A stretch of 64,000 nt of DNA from the IMG/VR virus record IMGVR_UViG_3300013121_000009, positions 54,426-118,425 of that record; one strand, written 5' to 3'. Both the position numbers and the translations under genes were made by a program. Of the stretch, positions 53,367 through 62,779 are shown one piece after another; within the stretch, counting starts at the first letter, position 1, and each line of letters starts with the position of its first letter. A model generated the notes under the pieces. That model was not told the origin of the DNA. It was given only the letters and a program-made list of their open reading frames with translations, and ran no database searches. Source of the DNA: a virus (Duplodnaviria; Caudoviricetes).

Positions 53367-53392
53367 CAAAGATAATGCACGTATGTTACGTG
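53367..53392 (-). promoter_or_regulatory. Bacteroidota-type promoter -7 element plus palindrome
   Basis: TATCTTTG at 53374-53367; CACGTA-N3-TACGTG at 53378-53392. Confidence 0.55.
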
Positions 53393-53407: not shown

Positions 53408-53851
53408 TTAAGAAAAGTATAACCTTGATTCTGCCTTTCTTCTTGCTGTTAAGCCTGCTAATACTCTTCCACCTGCCTTATTCCATAAAGTAAATTGATG
53501 TGCTATCTCTGGATCTGTAGGGTCAGCATTTACCTTTTTTAGAAGTGTTGATTTCATTAAATTCTTTATTCCTACATTGAAAGCAAATGAAACTAAGGCA
53601 GAGAATTGATTATCATTGATAACAGAATGAATTAAGGGAGCAACTCCCTTAGAAAACTGTGTTACATGAAATAATAGTAATGCATCAGCTTCCTGCTGGG
53701 TTATTTGCTCTCCTTGTTTCACTTTCCTACCATCCTGATAATAAGTTGCTCCATAACCTATTGTCCAAATTCCTACTGAATCCTGGTAGGATTTTAATCT
53801 ACAACCTTCAAAACGCTTTATTAAGTCTATTCCTACTTGAGTTATTTTCAT
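53408..53851 (-). CDS. endolysin, GH24 phage lysozyme
   Basis: FEGCRLKSYQDSVGIWTIGYG (E-x8-D-x5-T), ALVSFAFNVG, GLTARRKAE; start ATG 53851 via ATGA overlap. Confidence 0.95.
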   Translation of the reverse strand: MKITQVGIDLIKRFEGCRLKSYQDSVGIWTIGYGATYYQDGRKVKQGEQITQQEADALLLFHVTQFSKGVAPLIHSVINDNQFSALVSFAFNVGIKNLMKSTLLKKVNADPTDPEIAHQFTLWNKAGGRVLAGLTARRKAESRLYFS

Positions 53852-54459
53852 AATCCTAAAAACGCTAACCATTTATAATTTTTCGAAACTCTTCCTAAGA
53901 TAAAACCTAAAGTAATACACACTAGTATTACTACTATCCAAGCTATAAATGGAGATTTATGCACAGTTTTATTTAAATTCTTTAGAGGAGCCGAGTTTAA
54001 ACTTTTTCTTAATTTAAGATTTTCTTCAGAAATTATTTTGATTTTATTTGCCAGAGTTATACTATCATTTCTTAATTGAGAATTTTCAATATCTTTTTGT
54101 TGTATAGAATTTGTAAGTATAGTCTTTTCATTATTTGAACTCTTAATAACAACTTTTTTTGGTTGTATTTTACCTGATAAATCAGCATAAGTTTTAAGTT
54201 GCTGGTTTAGAGATGCGTTCTCGCTCTTTACCTGTACATAATCCATCCATAATTTATAGTATTCATCTGTCTTATCCACGTAAGCTTTAAGAAGAGTTTT
54301 ATTCTTAGATGCACAATCCTTATCTTGACCTAATTGTAATTCAAGTTTTGTACTTAATTCTTGTTTAATATCTTCAGGTTTTGGAGATTTTACTGGTTTC
54401 TGGGTTACTGTACATCCTATAACTAGTGATATTAGGAATGTTAAGGTTTTTCTTTTCAT
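53848..54459 (-). CDS. putative unimolecular spanin
   Basis: Lipoprotein signal MKRKTLTFLISLVIGC, coiled-coil body, C-terminal TM helix FIAWIVVILVCITLGFIL; next to endolysin. Confidence 0.7.
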   Translation of the reverse strand: MKRKTLTFLISLVIGCTVTQKPVKSPKPEDIKQELSTKLELQLGQDKDCASKNKTLLKAYVDKTDEYYKLWMDYVQVKSENASLNQQLKTYADLSGKIQPKKVVIKSSNNEKTILTNSIQQKDIENSQLRNDSITLANKIKIISEENLKLRKSLNSAPLKNLNKTVHKSPFIAWIVVILVCITLGFILGRVSKNYKWLAFLGL

Positions 54460-55163
54460 GATATTTTTGATTGTTTCTTAGATAATTTCTCTACTAGACC
54501 TAAAATAGAAATTATGTGCCCATCATGTGGGCTTCTATTTATTATAGCTCTATATTTAATTGGGAATGTTTCTTCTGTTAAAGGATTAGTAATCATATAC
54601 GAACTAGATATTTCTGTCCCACCATCTACTACATTTACCCATTCTTCTTTAGCTCTTTCTCTATCTGATTCTACTATAAAATTAACCCATCCATGTCCTA
54701 GTAATTGCTCTTCAGTTCCTCCAAACAGTTCTGTTAAAGCTTTATTTGCACCCGTACAATTTCCAATATTATCATTTCTAAACATTGCTGATTTTGATAA
54801 TTGAAATTCAGCATCTCTTTCAGAGAGAATATATTTAACATTTGAATGGATTTTAGTTACTAAATCTTTCAATGAACCTCCACCGTTTGGTTTTAATTCT
54901 GAAGATATATCAACTAACTGCTTAGTCATTGATTCAATATGTTCAAAAAGTGTCTGTTGATTTTTCACAATATTACTTAACTCTAAAGCCTTTAATTTCT
55001 TTTCTTCTTCCCTTTTATTAATACCTGGTTCAATTATTTTCTTCCATACTCCCCAATAGGCTAGTGCAGCAGTACAAACTGAGCCACCAAATATTATAAT
55101 TAGTGAATAAATAGTATGACCGAGTACACCGTAGTCAAGAGTTTGTGCATGAATTGTATCCAT
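54456..55163 (-). CDS. membrane-anchored PAS-domain protein in lysis cassette
   Basis: N-terminal TM helix, coiled coil, ELKPNGGGSLKD, then AMFRNDNIGNCTGANKALTELFG..EQLLGHGWVNFIVESDRERAKEEW (PAS consensus). Confidence 0.75.
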   Translation of the reverse strand: MDTIHAQTLDYGVLGHTIYSLIIIFGGSVCTAALAYWGVWKKIIEPGINKREEEKKLKALELSNIVKNQQTLFEHIESMTKQLVDISSELKPNGGGSLKDLVTKIHSNVKYILSERDAEFQLSKSAMFRNDNIGNCTGANKALTELFGGTEEQLLGHGWVNFIVESDRERAKEEWVNVVDGGTEISSSYMITNPLTEETFPIKYRAIINRSPHDGHIISILGLVEKLSKKQSKIS

Positions 55164-55171
55164 AGAGAAAC

Positions 55172-55501
55172 TTAGGGGTTTTCAGGAACATCTATGTTTT
55201 TCTGCGTTCCGTGCTCATCCTCTTCATATGAACTCCAACTTTGTGATGGAGTTGAAGATTTTATTATTTGAACTAAATTTGTTGCAGTTACACCAAAAAT
55301 TCCCAATAGTGTGATATAATATAAATGTAATTCTATTTGTTTAATTATTTCAATATTTGCTAGTTGTACACTTCCAGATGCAATTGATATTAATAGAGTT
55401 GCTACAATAAGATAAAAAGCCTGTAAAGCTATAAATCTCCTGCTAGATACTTTATTACTATCGGATAATAAAAGAGAGAACCATCTGAATATCTTTTTCA
55501 T
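55172..55501 (-). CDS. putative holin
   Basis: Two TM helices after VSSRRFIA; likely start ATG 55501; head of lysis cassette. Confidence 0.65.
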   Translation of the reverse strand: MKKIFRWFSLLLSDSNKVSSRRFIALQAFYLIVATLLISIASGSVQLANIEIIKQIELHLYYITLLGIFGVTATNLVQIIKSSTPSQSWSSYEEDEHGTQKNIDVPENP

Positions 55502-55502
55502 A

Positions 55503-56036
55503 TTAGCAACAATCACAAGATTTTTGAATTATTCTCGCTAATTCAGTATTAGTAACTTTAAAGCATTGATCTTGACTTTCCGTAGTTCCACAATCTCCAC
55601 AGTCAATATATTCCACTAAATAGTAAGGAGTATCCTTATCTAATTCTTGTAATGAGAAACTTATTGCTCCTTGAAGAGTGCCTGCAAATAATTCTGCATC
55701 ATCCGTATCAAATATTTTATAGGATTTTGCACAACCAACTGGAGTTGGACCTGAAGAAGAGAAGAATGTATATGCAGGTAGTCCTAGTACTGTAGTTGCT
55801 CTATGAAGTTTTACAGATGCTTGAGGTACAATACATAAATCAGATGAAGCATTACAAACCTTTTGGTCAATCTTTACCAGTATTTCATCTAATCTATCAC
55901 CATAATCTACTTCAACACAATTTAAACCTTCTCCATAATATTTTACACATCCTGCTGATATAATTTCTTTACAAGCAGTACATGAACCTGATGGAGGGCA
56001 ACTAGATATAGTTATTGTTTTACACTTTTTTGCCAT
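55503..56036 (-). CDS. Cys-rich fibre-associated structural protein
   Basis: Shares C..CVKYxGE..C N-terminal module with the 471- and 406-aa ORFs. Confidence 0.55.
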   Translation of the reverse strand: MAKKCKTITISSCPPSGSCTACKEIISAGCVKYYGEGLNCVEVDYGDRLDEILVKIDQKVCNASSDLCIVPQASVKLHRATTVLGLPAYTFFSSSGPTPVGCAKSYKIFDTDDAELFAGTLQGAISFSLQELDKDTPYYLVEYIDCGDCGTTESQDQCFKVTNTELARIIQKSCDCC

Positions 56037-56206: not shown

Positions 56207-57622
56207 TTAATGTAAATCTGTCCAACCAGTTGCTGTAGTATATCCTTGATATTTATCATTTCCTGGATTATATCTAATACATCCTACTTCTGCTGTTACA
56301 GCACCAGTACTTTGTGAAATTCTAATCCAGTTACTGTTTATAATTACTAAGTTTGTTTCTTGTGCCCATCCTTTTCCAGCTCCAGTTCCAGTATTCGTAA
56401 ATAAGTAATACTCATCTACGTTAAAGGTTGCTATATGTTTACCAGATGCATCAACTTTGATTTTATCTGTAGTGCCCATACCAGTTGAAGATGAAGTAAT
56501 TGATGTACTTGCAATGTTGAAAACAAGATTGGCTTGTGGTATACCAGCTCCATGAACAACAGCAATATCAGAACCGAATAGCCAAGATGACTGGTTTCCT
56601 GTTCCACCACTTGTATAAGCAAGGTCAGAACCAAACATTGTACCACCAGCTCCTGCTAAACCACCATTTACATTCAAATCAAGTCCCATATAGAAACCTA
56701 AAGCTGTAGTTAAGTTGATGTTAGTACCTATTGCATTTGCTAATACACCATTTAAAGTAATATCTGTTCCAATAAATGTTCCTCCTACTACTGGTCCAGC
56801 AGCAGTTATATTTGAACCTATTCTAATACAACCATCATATGTACTGAAGTCATCAAATACATCTGTACCTATAGATATAGAAGTAAAATTTGAATCATAT
56901 CTAAATCCTCTGCTTTGTGTTGATTCATCTGAATCATTTAGTGATATAATGCCAGTAGAAGAAAGATTTATTCCTTCAGTTTTAGCTATTAATTCAGATA
57001 GTTTTGATGCATTAGTACCTAAAGATAAGAAATATGAACCTGCTCCAAGTAAAGAAGTATTTTCTATAAGTGTTCCACCCAATTTAAATAAATTAACTCC
57101 TGGACTAGGATTAGATTCAGTAATCCCGTTAGAAGAATTATAGTCTATAACTGTAGGAATAGTAACAGTTTCGGCTATCCAATTTCCATCAATATCACTC
57201 CATCTAAGAAATTGACCATCTGTAGGATTAGCATCTACGTTTCCTAAAGAATTCAATTCACATGCAGATAACTCTGAACAACTAAACGTATAAGCTTCTG
57301 GGAATTCTATAGAAGAATTTACCCATTTTGTTCCATCCCAAGATAAAACTTGATTACTAGAAGGAGAAGAAACTACAACATCTGCCAAGTCATTTATACT
57401 ACAAGAGTTTAACTCAGCGCAACTAAATTGATATTGAGACTCATCTAATTCACATAATAATGTAGCCATACTCTCGATAATAGTATTAAGAGTAGCTCCT
57501 TCTGTTATATTAGCACAACTAAAAGTTTCTCCATCATAATTGATACATGATGATAAATAAGTATTTAGACATCCATCATCTTCTGGAATATCTAAGGGAT
57601 CAGGACAGTTGTTACAAGACAT
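56207..57622 (-). CDS. tail/head fibre protein
   Basis: Two FSCxELxxC..DL.DV..P..QxLxW..W repeats, Gly/Thr-rich shaft, GCIRYN..KYQGY...W end motif. Confidence 0.7.
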   Translation of the reverse strand: MSCNNCPDPLDIPEDDGCLNTYLSSCINYDGETFSCANITEGATLNTIIESMATLLCELDESQYQFSCAELNSCSINDLADVVVSSPSSNQVLSWDGTKWVNSSIEFPEAYTFSCSELSACELNSLGNVDANPTDGQFLRWSDIDGNWIAETVTIPTVIDYNSSNGITESNPSPGVNLFKLGGTLIENTSLLGAGSYFLSLGTNASKLSELIAKTEGINLSSTGIISLNDSDESTQSRGFRYDSNFTSISIGTDVFDDFSTYDGCIRIGSNITAAGPVVGGTFIGTDITLNGVLANAIGTNINLTTALGFYMGLDLNVNGGLAGAGGTMFGSDLAYTSGGTGNQSSWLFGSDIAVVHGAGIPQANLVFNIASTSITSSSTGMGTTDKIKVDASGKHIATFNVDEYYLFTNTGTGAGKGWAQETNLVIINSNWIRISQSTGAVTAEVGCIRYNPGNDKYQGYTTATGWTDLH

Positions 57623-57653: not shown

Positions 57654-58874
57654 TTACGCTATTTTTTGAACTAATACTAATGTAGTAAAGGCATTACGAA
57701 TGTCTATAACATCATTACTAACTTCTCCTTCCCCATCAATATTATCTGTGGCATCCCCAGTATTTACTTCGTAGTAACATTGAGCATCATCTCCAGTATT
57801 GGAACCAGCCTGTGCGTCTAATTCTGTGACTGTTTTAGCATATTCCCCAGAACTTGTTGGGATATTTGTATTATGTAACCCTTCATAAATTGTTCTACCA
57901 TTTACGTTATGAGTTAAAATCCAATCATAGGTATGTTTATGCGCAGGAAGATTAGAAGCAGTCAAAGTGAGAGAATCAGAACCTCCTGCTTCTGCTGAAG
58001 CATCATAATCAGAATCATTAATATCAAACCCTCTTAAAGTAGCTTGTTTATGATTTTCTGTAGAATTGTTTCCATTACAAATTGCCCACTTAGTCCATTT
58101 CGTATTAGCTTTTCCAGCTCCCCAAGAACTTCCAGTAAGAATAAAATCTACAAGATTTTCTTGAGAAATACCCATTTTGGTTCCTTTAGGTAGACCTAAA
58201 TCCCAGTATTCATTAGATTGTAATATATTTACAATTTCAGTAGTAACTATATCTGAGATATCTTCTTCAGTTATTACTTTATTTACTTTAATAGTAACTT
58301 TAGCAGTACACTCTTTTTCTCCTTTTACTACTTTATATATAAGAGAGTCATTTCCAAAGAAGTCAGTACTAGGAGTATATGTTATTGTGTTATCCACATT
58401 CCTTACTGCTACACCATTAAGTGGTGGGGTAATAATACTTACGACTGCTGTACCTGAAACTTGAACTAGATAGTCATTAAATAATATATCTATATTTAAA
58501 GATGAATTTTGATCTAGCTGAACTATGTCATTACTACAGATAAGAATAGAGAAATCCGAAATTTTAGAATATAGAGAGCAAATATTATCTCTATAATATT
58601 CTAATATTGTCCCTACAGTTATAGAACCAGGAATTTCAATATCTGGATTAGCTTCTATAACACATGCTAAATCAATTGATGATAAATCATAGTCAATAAC
58701 TTCAGTCTGTACTTCACAGTATTTATCTAAAAGTTTCTTTATCAAGTAGTTAAGAAGAGTAACATCTTCACATCCGTTTGATTCTAAACATTCAGGGATT
58801 TCTCCTGTATATTTAATCAAATCTGTACTTGTTATTTCGCATTTTGGAGCAGTTTCTCCAGAGTATTTTGACAT
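57654..58874 (-). CDS. fibre/collar protein with Ig-like (Big_9-type) domain
   Basis: IDILFND..PLNG..ITYTP..DFFGNDSLIY Ig-like; WAICNG and GGSDSLTLTASNLPAHKH collar-type motifs. Confidence 0.7.
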   Translation of the reverse strand: MSKYSGETAPKCEITSTDLIKYTGEIPECLESNGCEDVTLLNYLIKKLLDKYCEVQTEVIDYDLSSIDLACVIEANPDIEIPGSITVGTILEYYRDNICSLYSKISDFSILICSNDIVQLDQNSSLNIDILFNDYLVQVSGTAVVSIITPPLNGVAVRNVDNTITYTPSTDFFGNDSLIYKVVKGEKECTAKVTIKVNKVITEEDISDIVTTEIVNILQSNEYWDLGLPKGTKMGISQENLVDFILTGSSWGAGKANTKWTKWAICNGNNSTENHKQATLRGFDINDSDYDASAEAGGSDSLTLTASNLPAHKHTYDWILTHNVNGRTIYEGLHNTNIPTSSGEYAKTVTELDAQAGSNTGDDAQCYYEVNTGDATDNIDGEGEVSNDVIDIRNAFTTLVLVQKIA

Positions 58875-60814: not shown

Positions 60815-62779
60815 TTATCTGTACAGGTTACCTGTATGGTCAGAGCTTACTAAGTCAGGTCTAGCAGAGATAATCCATCCTTCAAGAACATTCTCGAAAT
60901 CTGTAGTGTCTGCTTCTTCTGGGAATGCGAAAGTCAGTGTTGTTCTGATATCCATACCACCATAACCCAAGTTTTTGTTGTATTTGTCAATTGCTTCGAA
61001 TTCTAAGTAGTAGAACTTGAAGAATTTAGAAGTGTCAATGAAATCATAGTTATAACCATAAATTTCTCTCCATCTCTTATCATCAGTGTAGTGTTGTCCT
61101 TTAAATGACATATTTTCAATGTAGTCTCTAAGAACTGTCTCACCTGTACCTGTTGGGTATTTAGGAGCTTGAATTAGAGTTACTGGCCATTGTTCGACAC
61201 ACTCATCAGCATTATCCCAAATTGAAGGAGTATTTTGACGAACTGTAATCTTAGGGATATCAAGTTCTACAAAATCATCATATTGGAATGAGCATTTGCC
61301 AAATTTAGTATCAACATATCCACCAACTAATTTAATACCAATGTTATCAATTGCATTACCTGTTACAGTATCACAAGGGCATTCAGTCCAATGGAAACCT
61401 TTATAAGGATCTAATGTACCAAATGTTGGGATTCCTGTTTCACACTCATCTTCTAACACTAAGTCAGAGTAGATTTCAATTGTGAATGAGTTAGCACATG
61501 AACCATCAGTATCTTGAGCTAGTGAACTATCTACCACCATTGGGTTATCTGCATATTGAGCTTCTAGAGCTGCTAATGTATTAGAACCATCGGTATCACA
61601 TTCTTCATCTCCTACTACTAAACAAAGTGTTTTCTTAACTTTGTAAGGTGTAATAGTAGACTTAACCCAAGGAACTTCTACTGCTGAAGTAAGAACACAA
61701 ACTGGAGGGATTGTATCTACCAATACTACAGTATCTCCGCTTACAGCATTTGTGATAGGTGTTGTTGCACTTGAACCTCTTGCTTCATAAGTTGAAACTC
61801 CGTTAGCAAATACTAAACGAACTACAGTTGAAGCTTCAATATAAGCATCATAATCTGTATGAATATCTGTAAGAGCAGTAGATGAACCATCGTCAGCTCT
61901 TGTTATAAAGAATTTGTATTTAACATCTTCTCCTGTAAGTGTATATCCTGATGGACATTCTCCTGGGCAACCTTTGATAGTTACTACATTAGATGTAGAA
62001 TAAGGATCTGGATCTGGATCTGTACCAACTTGTACTAATGAATATGTACTAAAGATACCATCTCTTGATTCTAAAGTTACTCCTAATCCTGGATATGCAG
62101 CCTGAAGTGCAGCTAGATTTTGGATAGAGCCATCATCAGCAATTGTTAAAGTAAATTTCTTAAATGTAGTTTTATCAACACTTGGAGGTGTGGAATAAGC
62201 TACAATTTTCTCAGCTTTAACAAAAGGAGAAATTGTTTGACTTGCGTTAATTGCTTTTACGAAGTAGTCAACCATATTTTCTGGAAAAGCTACACAATCA
62301 TCTCCACCACAAGAACTAAATGTATAGGTATAAGTTTCAGTAAGAGGTTTAGCTCCAAAGAAACGAGATACTGGAGAACCTTCAACTTGTACAAACAAGC
62401 TATAGGTTTTACCACATTCTGCTGTGATAGTTTTACAATCTGTAACTCCATCCCAACCAATAGTAACTATTTGATTCTGAGGTCTTTGCGGAAGTGACTT
62501 TCTGTAAGCAATTAATTTACCAGCCTGAATAGGAACTGATTTTGTAGAAACAGATGAATTGGTCCAACCAATTTTATCTGGATTTGGGCTTCCTTGTGCT
62601 ATAATGATTTCTCTAACTGAAGAAGCAGATGTACCAACAGCAAGAGCTTTATAAGTCTGACTATTGAATAAACCAATTTGAAGAGGAACTAAATCTGCTG
62701 TAGTTTTAGTTGCATCTGTCAATACTGCTCCTGTTCCTACGAAATAATTGTAGCTTAAGGATTCTTTGTAATTTTGCAT
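60815..62779 (-). CDS. major structural protein, probable auxiliary capsid/decoration protein
   Basis: 654 aa, beta-rich, own upstream gap and terminator; position after ring gene as in crAss-like phages. Confidence 0.55.
   Translation of the reverse strand: MQNYKESLSYNYFVGTGAVLTDATKTTADLVPLQIGLFNSQTYKALAVGTSASSVREIIIAQGSPNPDKIGWTNSSVSTKSVPIQAGKLIAYRKSLPQRPQNQIVTIGWDGVTDCKTITAECGKTYSLFVQVEGSPVSRFFGAKPLTETYTYTFSSCGGDDCVAFPENMVDYFVKAINASQTISPFVKAEKIVAYSTPPSVDKTTFKKFTLTIADDGSIQNLAALQAAYPGLGVTLESRDGIFSTYSLVQVGTDPDPDPYSTSNVVTIKGCPGECPSGYTLTGEDVKYKFFITRADDGSSTALTDIHTDYDAYIEASTVVRLVFANGVSTYEARGSSATTPITNAVSGDTVVLVDTIPPVCVLTSAVEVPWVKSTITPYKVKKTLCLVVGDEECDTDGSNTLAALEAQYADNPMVVDSSLAQDTDGSCANSFTIEIYSDLVLEDECETGIPTFGTLDPYKGFHWTECPCDTVTGNAIDNIGIKLVGGYVDTKFGKCSFQYDDFVELDIPKITVRQNTPSIWDNADECVEQWPVTLIQAPKYPTGTGETVLRDYIENMSFKGQHYTDDKRWREIYGYNYDFIDTSKFFKFYYLEFEAIDKYNKNLGYGGMDIRTTLTFAFPEEADTTDFENVLEGWIISARPDLVSSDHTGNLYR

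Follow-up and report, generated by a model that had tools for sequence, protein, structure and literature searches.

A membrane-anchored PAS protein encoded in a phage lysis cassette is a candidate holin-type or holin-partner lysis protein

The window, i.e., the whole stretch of DNA that was analyzed, comprises the final 64 kb of the 118,425-bp IMG/VR virus record IMGVR_UViG_3300013121_000009 (Caudoviricetes), which is rated 97% complete; the G+C content of the window is 30.5%. The subject of this work is a gene for a single-pass membrane protein of 235 amino acids (aa) with a PAS domain, located in a putative lysis cassette on the minus strand. There, five closely packed genes lie downstream of tail-fibre-like, Cys-rich genes. 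They encode a 177-aa Cys-rich protein without family match that ends in CDCC (55503-56036), a holin-like protein with two transmembrane (TM) helices according to a TM scan (55172-55516; 114 aa from a GTG start, 109 aa if translation begins at the ATG at 55501), the 235-aa PAS protein (54456-55163), a 203-aa envelope-spanning protein resembling a unimolecular spanin (u-spanin; 53848-54459) and a 154-aa soluble GH24 endolysin (53408-53872; PF00959, 8e-44; phrog_7, 1e-54). The limits of the open reading frame (ORF) for the 235-aa protein are exact, and its assignment draws on Pfam, TIGR00229, an AlphaFold2 (AF2) model and Foldseek. The 2-TM gene is separated from this downstream ORF by 8 nucleotides (nt). 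The stop codon of the latter (TGA, 54458-54456) lies within an ATGA overlap with the start codon of the 203-aa gene (ATG, 54459-54457), which in turn overlaps the endolysin gene by 25 nt. An earlier note, made from the letters of the window, had described the order holin, TM/PNGGGSLKD/PAS protein, u-spanin and endolysin with an ATGA overlap, and the ORF map and TM scan bear out this order, with the first and third genes taken as holin-like and u-spanin-like. The 235-aa protein is a membrane protein encoded within a lysis cassette, as is expected of a holin.

The 235-aa protein is built from one N-terminal TM helix, a long helical stalk, the sequence PNGGGSLKD and a PAS fold, without an output domain. 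Hydropathy and flank charges placed the TM helix at about residues 17-39 (55047-55115; minus strand, as for all features of this protein). Its N-terminal flank is acidic and lacks K and R, and its C-terminal flank, WKKIIEPGINKREEEKK, is basic (WKK..K.R). According to the positive-inside rule, an N-out/C-in topology is therefore predicted, with the 16-residue N-terminus outside and the remainder in the cytoplasm. A periplasmic PAS domain was considered and rejected, since the N-terminal flank contains no K or R and the fold is of the cytoplasmic PAS type. The TM helix is followed by the predicted cytoplasmic stalk (residues 40-90; 54894-55046), which is helical in the AF2 model and coiled-coil-like; Pfam matches of the coiled-coil type in the stalk were weak. 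The PNGGGSLKD motif (residues 92-100; 54864-54890) lies in the loop between the stalk and the N-cap helix (residues 98-122) that precedes the PAS domain (residues 126-226; 54486-54788). The AF2 model was based on an alignment of 106 relatives and reached a mean predicted local distance difference test score (pLDDT) of 91. It comprises a continuous helix from residue 11 to residue 90 (pLDDT 94-95), a loop with PNGGGS (residues 91-97), the N-cap helix and the PAS domain.

The PAS fold proposed in the earlier note was recovered by profile scores, by the AF2 model and by structural search. In Pfam, the 235-aa protein scored 28.1 bits against PAS_3 (cut-off 25.6) and 25.1 bits against PAS_4 (cut-off 23.1), and TIGR00229 scored 27.8 (cut-off 22.9). 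The AF2 model contains the five-stranded, antiparallel PAS sheet with its flanking helices (strands 126-130, 136-139, 184-193, 198-210 and 217-226). Foldseek against the PDB returned PAS or LOV-PAS structures for all of the best 35 matches listed, with 3lyx at the top (E 1.7e-9), followed by FixL, ARNT and LOV-HK. PAS_3 was matched by 92 of the 106 family members, among which solely PAS-type families recur, and G134, N140, G148, G156, G158, W159 and W175 are near-invariant across the family. Like bacterial PAS sensors (histidine kinases, diguanylate cyclases, FixL, LOV-HK), the 235-aa protein carries a canonical PAS fold after a signalling-type helix; unlike them, it has no kinase, GGDEF, EAL or HTH output. 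No HisKA/HATPase, GGDEF, EAL or HTH domain was found in it, since only PAS families match and the chain ends nine residues past the PAS fold. The description as a membrane anchor lacking an output domain, also made previously, thus agrees with the single TM helix and the exclusive matches to PAS families.

The protein belongs to a large family. An exhaustive HMMER search retrieved 2421 cluster representatives at E <1e-3 and 341 at E <1e-10, mostly of 170-260 aa and of the same build; a word-indexed search retrieved three near relatives only. Among the best 150 HMMER matches, 138 were shorter than 300 aa. An N-terminal hydrophobic helix was present in 85 of these 138 short members (with a threshold set in this analysis), and a strict PNGGxSxxD-type motif preceded the PAS domain in 68; the PNGGxS element was absent from the long bacterial matches. 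The nearest ESM-Atlas clusters were 100% viral, one of them with 1142 members, and look-alikes in BFVD are named 'PAS domain [uncultured Caudovirales phage]'. Among 50,697 cultured-phage records, tblastn with the 235-aa protein and with two of its distant family members yielded no match, and a single-protein scan of IMG/VR found nothing. When 185,579 species genomes were scanned with the pattern PNGGSSL[RK]D, eight loci only were found, mostly actinobacterial and with the match limited to the motif region. Given a large, phage-only family with a frequent lysis-gene neighbourhood, the 235-aa protein probably helps to set the time at which the host bursts.

The motif itself leads to lysis cassettes. 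P92, N93, G94, G95, G96, S97 and D100 are invariant in two family alignments. The motif region, rather than whole PHROG profiles, matched phrog_9869 (E 2.8e-5) and, weakly, phrog_15431 (0.013), which is labelled 'holin'. When 25 N-terminal modules of the PAS family were compared by hhalign with five PAS-less actinophage proteins, the match covered 37 columns with E-hydrophobic-x-PNGGxS-hydrophobic-(K/R)-D-x-hydrophobic at their centre (probability 98.35%, E 1.1e-14). The PAS-less proteins (phrog_9869, phrog_15431) share with the 235-aa protein the N-terminal TM helix, the helical stalk and this 37-residue element; unlike it, they lack a PAS domain and end a short way beyond the motif helix. 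In Thermobifida phage P1312, the gene P1312_040 lies 4 nt ahead of an amidase gene. The order is endolysin, holin, gp37 in Streptomyces phage TurkishDelight and gp22, endolysin, holin in Arthrobacter phage Sonali, and gp72 of Arthrobacter phage Salgado bears the RefSeq label 'holin', by annotation only. The earlier remark that small membrane proteins next to phage holins carry PNGGxS motifs is borne out for phage lysis cassettes by the profile-profile match together with the loci of P1312, TurkishDelight and Sonali. No other part of the 235-aa protein is tied to lysis cassettes as specifically as the 37-residue element. It connects actinophage lysis cassettes with those of phages apparently infecting Gram-negative hosts and offers a marker by which further lysis proteins of this unannotated class could be recognised in sequence.

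Gene neighbourhoods were surveyed by scanning IMG/VR with the pattern [EQ][LV]xPNGGGS. The 74 loci found were reduced to 39 non-redundant records (given L numbers here), i.e., 40 including the window. The 39 records were scanned for the endolysin families PF00959, PF01510, PF13539, PF01464 (SLT) and PF00182 (GH19), and phmmer and Pfam added others. In 13 of the 40 records, a recognisable endolysin gene and the PAS gene lie no more than about 1 kb apart. With respect to records with any candidate endolysin, it was adjacent in 13 of 16 (window included), as compared to roughly 5-10% expected from uniform placement in records of 15-170 kb. The 13 linked records comprise four endolysin types and both gene orders. 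PF00959 was found in 6 of the 39 records and lay about 1 kb or less from the PAS gene in five: it is the next gene downstream in L010, L019, L020 and L029 and the third downstream in L027. In the remaining record, L057, the PF00959 match is weak and 48 kb away. PF13539 occurred in four records, each time within about 1 kb. In L004, this M15 endolysin follows a homing endonuclease gene inserted after the PAS gene (L004:3505-4125; phrog_314, 4e-23); in L005, it follows a gene for a protein with a signal and a C-terminal TM helix, the same order as in the window; and in L023 and L024, it lies just upstream of the PAS gene. Further linked records are L018 (M15-like, upstream), L038 (GH108, immediately downstream) and L043 (PG_binding_1, immediately upstream). 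PF01510 was present in one record only, 31 kb from the PAS gene (L032); SLT was found in none of the 39 records, and GH19 gave one sub-threshold match only, 10 kb away in L007. Hence, a distant candidate was seen in only three records (L007, L032 and L057). In a quick IQ-TREE tree, in which many deep forks are unresolved, the linked members fall into at least 5-7 separate clades, and the linked loci span 26-68% G+C. The endolysins of the GC-rich clade have G/A-rich N-termini resembling signal-anchor-release (SAR) sequences, and the PAS gene overlaps the SAR-type endolysin gene by 4 nt in L019, L020 and L029 and lies 54 nt from it in L010.

The pairing with the 2-TM gene was examined in the closest relatives. 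A homologue of the 2-TM gene is located directly upstream of the PAS gene in L094 (66% identity) and in L004 and L005/L006 (42-46%). In L007 (40% identity), it lies about 1.8 kb upstream, with a second copy another 1 kb upstream; the two copies (L007:1619-1906 and L007:2830-3153) have diverged, and a 482-aa gene stands between them and the PAS gene. The order in L094 is holin-like gene, PAS gene, gene for a coiled-coil protein with an N-terminal TM helix, gene for a protein with a signal and a C-terminal TM helix, and exonuclease homologue, and L007 is similar. Relatives of the 2-TM family are too few to judge whether the PAS gene can be dispensed with.

The largest clade, type A, consists of nine clusters, which come in addition to the 13 linked records, and its surrounding is different. 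A sigma-factor-like gene lies two genes upstream of the PAS gene, and genes for a 70-aa two-helix membrane protein and then a 308-aa protein lie downstream (L028:5715-6641, L061:5724-7346, L047:5764-6690). Papain-type motifs (Q...GDCV(A/S)HS, GWNHAM and QNSWG) were recognised by eye in the 308-aa protein, and in L061, the sole type A record checked for this, a thioredoxin gene with WCGPC follows the papain-like gene. The 239-aa and 308-aa neighbours in type A had no sequence match in Pfam or the PDB, and none of PF00959, PF01510, PF13539, PF01464 and PF00182 was found in the complete type A record of 166.8 kb. The type A block is again a membrane/envelope module.

The closest precedent is provided by LysF1a and LysF1b of the F1-cluster mycobacteriophages Girr and NormanBulbieJr (NBJ), where a gene for a protein with two TM domains (TMDs) is followed by a 1-TMD gene with an ATGA overlap (PMC13056207). 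LysF1b, of 124 aa, has a single TMD with basic residues behind it, a predicted N-out/C-in topology and an extended, helical portion in the cytoplasm (PMC13056207). Deletion of lysF1a or lysF1b alters lysis in Girr and NBJ, with severe lysis defects upon loss of lysF1b, and phages that carry lysF1b alone still lyse and trigger with energy poisons (PMC13056207). LysF1b-like proteins show minimal identity to one another (PMC13056207). The 235-aa protein likewise has one TMD, a predicted N-out/C-in topology, basic residues after the TMD, a helical cytoplasmic part and an adjoining 2-TMD gene, and in both cases the genes are tightly packed or overlapping in the lysis cassette. Unlike LysF1b, it possesses a globular PAS fold, and the likeness is drawn from the description of LysF1b; moreover, the LysF1b phages infect mycolata. 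By analogy, LysF1a/LysF1b appears to be the best functional counterpart of the 2-TM/PAS pair.

Single-TMD lysis proteins with a regulated soluble domain provide a second comparison. The class IIIb holin gp142 of phiKZ has a single TMD and a large cytoplasmic regulatory domain that is bound by the cytoplasmic regulator gp143 (PMC12894885). T4 gpt is reported to be a class IIIa holin with the antiholins RI and RIII (PMC11413866), which are reportedly signal-dependent (PMC11413866, PMC8385771). The 235-aa protein resembles T4 gpt and phiKZ gp142 in being a single-TMD protein with a large soluble domain, which in these holins is the site of timing control (cytoplasmic in phiKZ). Both are oriented N-in/C-out, as opposed to the predicted N-out/C-in of the 235-aa protein, and neither has a PAS domain or sequence similarity to it. 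None of LysF1a/LysF1b, phiKZ gp142/gp143 and T4 RI/RIII carries a PAS domain, and full-text searches yielded no paper joining PAS domains to holins or lysis cassettes.

Taken together, we regard the 235-aa protein, with a probability of about 0.5, as a lysis protein of the holin or holin-partner type that is equipped with a regulatory PAS domain in the cytoplasm, the function itself being predicted. This interpretation follows from the cassette position (2-TM gene 8 nt upstream, ATGA junction to the lipobox gene, GH24 endolysin thereafter), from the retention of the 2-TM/PAS pairing in L094, L004, L005/L006 and L007, and from the endolysin linkage across at least 5-7 clades together with the membrane/envelope module of type A. 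It also follows from the motif homology to PAS-less proteins encoded beside actinophage endolysin and holin genes, from the topology and pairing resembling LysF1b/LysF1a, and from the precedent of phiKZ gp142/gp143 for a holin regulatory domain. The 235-aa protein would thus be a single-pass component of the lysis machinery in the inner membrane, with a short N-terminus outside and its bulk inside. Together with the adjoining 2-TM holin-like protein, it may decide the moment of the membrane lesion, which would give the soluble GH24 endolysin access to the wall. The TM helix and the helical stalk with PNGGxSxxD would represent a lysis-cassette module, which in actinophages exists alone, and the C-terminal PAS domain would be a cytoplasmic regulatory addition. 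It could govern whether the protein associates with itself or with a partner, possibly upon a cue from the cytoplasm. Its interaction with the 2-TM protein, the sense in which it acts (activator, co-holin or inhibitor) and any sensing are inferred. The proposal made in the earlier note, a second holin or antiholin whose PAS domain couples lysis timing to host physiology, is therefore supported in part.

A different role in lysis would be that of a dedicated antiholin. Bound to the 2-TM holin by way of the TM helix or the stalk, the protein would keep it inactive as long as the PAS domain has not changed state (in response to redox, energy or a metabolite), in a cytoplasmic counterpart of lysis inhibition in T4. 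The PAS gene directly follows the holin-like gene, as in holin/antiholin pairs, the pair is conserved, and PAS domains are typical input domains. Furthermore, regulators acting on the cytoplasmic part of holins exist, namely phiKZ gp143 (PMC12894885) and, reportedly, T4 RIII (PMC11413866). Nevertheless, we consider an antiholin unlikely: in L019, L020 and L010, the PAS gene is found just upstream of the SAR endolysin gene, and a small 2-TM gene is not evident on that strand, so that an effector fits better than an inhibitor. In addition, the studied 1-TMD analogue, LysF1b, promotes rather than delays lysis (PMC13056207). The position upstream of SAR-type endolysins in L010, L019, L020 and L029 would also be compatible with release of a membrane-tethered SAR endolysin, as by Mu gp25; the gross build is the same, and, in structure and membrane topology, LysF1b has been reported to resemble Mu releasin most (PMC13056207). 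Such a releasin-like function is nonetheless very improbable, as the endolysin of the window has no SAR or TM segment and several of the linked endolysins (M15_4, GH108 and PG_binding_1) are soluble.

Several observations weigh against the reading as a holin-type or holin-partner protein with a PAS regulatory domain. Many of the records surveyed are fragments of 5-50% completeness, and about a third were uninterpretable. No endolysin was found at the corresponding place in L094 and L007, the nearest relatives with enough flanking sequence. In type B (three clusters), the order is DnaB-like helicase gene, ribonucleotide reductase gene, PAS gene and Mom-like gene, with no lysis gene nearby, and in L022 it is located between an exonuclease gene and a ferritin-like gene; type B loci and L022 do not look like lysis loci. 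The survey of homologues, suggested in the earlier note, upheld a lysis linkage far above chance for the family, with the exception of the type B clade, where no link was visible. The 2-TM protein had no match in Pfam, PHROG, PADLOC or NCBIfam and can be called a holin only by shape and place. A by-eye reading of two family alignments revealed no conserved heme-His or LOV-Cys; likewise by eye, helix 165-181 contains no conserved His, and a motif of the NCRFLQ type is absent; a ligand of another kind may be bound. Rare family variants carry a second PAS domain (P0016 and P0027) or a receiver domain (P0132), which points to generic signalling; in P0132 (362 aa), TM helix, stalk, PNSGSSMRD and PAS domain are fused to a response-regulator receiver domain (PF00072, 2.5e-17). 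The protein could be a stand-alone, membrane-tethered PAS protein outside the lysis machinery that travels in late operons beside lysis genes and serves interference with host signalling (for example by heterodimerising with PAS-containing host kinases) or superinfection exclusion. Apart from type B, several single loci without lysis neighbours and the variants with a receiver or second PAS domain would fit, and the structural neighbours include sensor kinases and heterodimerising PAS domains of the ARNT type. We also hold this explanation to be improbable because the PAS gene lies close beside endolysin genes of four unrelated families, upstream in some loci and downstream in others and across many clades, because the homologous PAS-less module is confined to lysis cassettes in actinophages, and because PADLOC returned no defence-system match.

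A wider proposal can be made tentatively, and we deem it rather less than probable: thousands of uncultured phages, with hosts of 26-68% G+C, may use a holin-class protein with a cytoplasmic PAS sensor of its own to time lysis by an intracellular signal (redox or energy state, or a metabolite), in addition to the holin concentration. Lysis control of this kind would be general and as yet undescribed, and it would extend to the protease-based modules of phages whose records gave no match to the five endolysin families. Lysis timing sets phage fitness. To our knowledge, few inputs are known to affect it: in general, the concentration of the holin and the membrane potential and, in T4, N4 and ICP1, superinfection. 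A sensor-type domain within a lysis-cassette membrane protein whose family numbers thousands, and for which no cultured member was found, would offer a direct handle on whether phages read host physiology before lysis.

The neighbours of the PAS gene in the window were characterized further. The GH24 endolysin shows no SAR or TM segment and no hydrophobic N-terminus in the TM scan and would therefore require a hole-forming holin. Its best NCBIfam match was the model of the gene-transfer-agent endolysin BgtA (4.8e-41, far below the cut-off of that model). Besides its two TM helices, the 2-TM protein shows a conserved element at the N-terminus (W..LLLSD....S.RRF) and a C-terminal tail that is acidic. 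Its ATG start (109 aa) is the more likely one, and the public gene call P0155 begins there. A dual-start antiholin reading of this gene (GTG, then ATG) was rejected, since the extra residues, MIVAN, are uncharged.

The 203-aa protein had no family match in Pfam or PHROGs. It has the u-spanin build, in which one chain combines an N-terminal lipoprotein signal (here the lipobox LVIGC, Cys16) with a C-terminal TM helix (residues 171-189); the part in between is helical. This lipobox/C-terminal-TM gene suggests a host with a two-membrane envelope. Its counterparts, which have a signal peptide and a C-terminal TM helix (L094:1504-2338, L005:5942-6403 and L007:5933-6412), lack the lipobox Cys, and L094 additionally carries the overlapping gene for the coiled-coil protein with an N-terminal TM helix. 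Therefore, the envelope-spanning component varies within this small clade and membership of the 203-aa protein in the u-spanin lineage is uncertain; the earlier designation as a u-spanin holds for lipobox and TM helix in the window and does not extend to the lipobox in these relatives.

Promoter scans of the window gave nothing above chance, and TAnnTTTG was no commoner than in shuffles. Terminator-like hairpins exceeded chance (6 as compared to a shuffle mean of 1.2); the single intergenic one among them, a palindrome at 53378-53392, is without the required T-run on the coding strand. The 177-aa protein begins with a Cys-rich segment, as do the 471-aa (56207-57622) and 406-aa (57654-58874) proteins, the latter two being fibre-like. 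The window phage has no close cultured relative; for a 654-aa protein (60815-62779), the sole cultured relatives were Leptolyngbya phage Lbo-JY46 (27% identity) and a crAss-like gut phage (23%).

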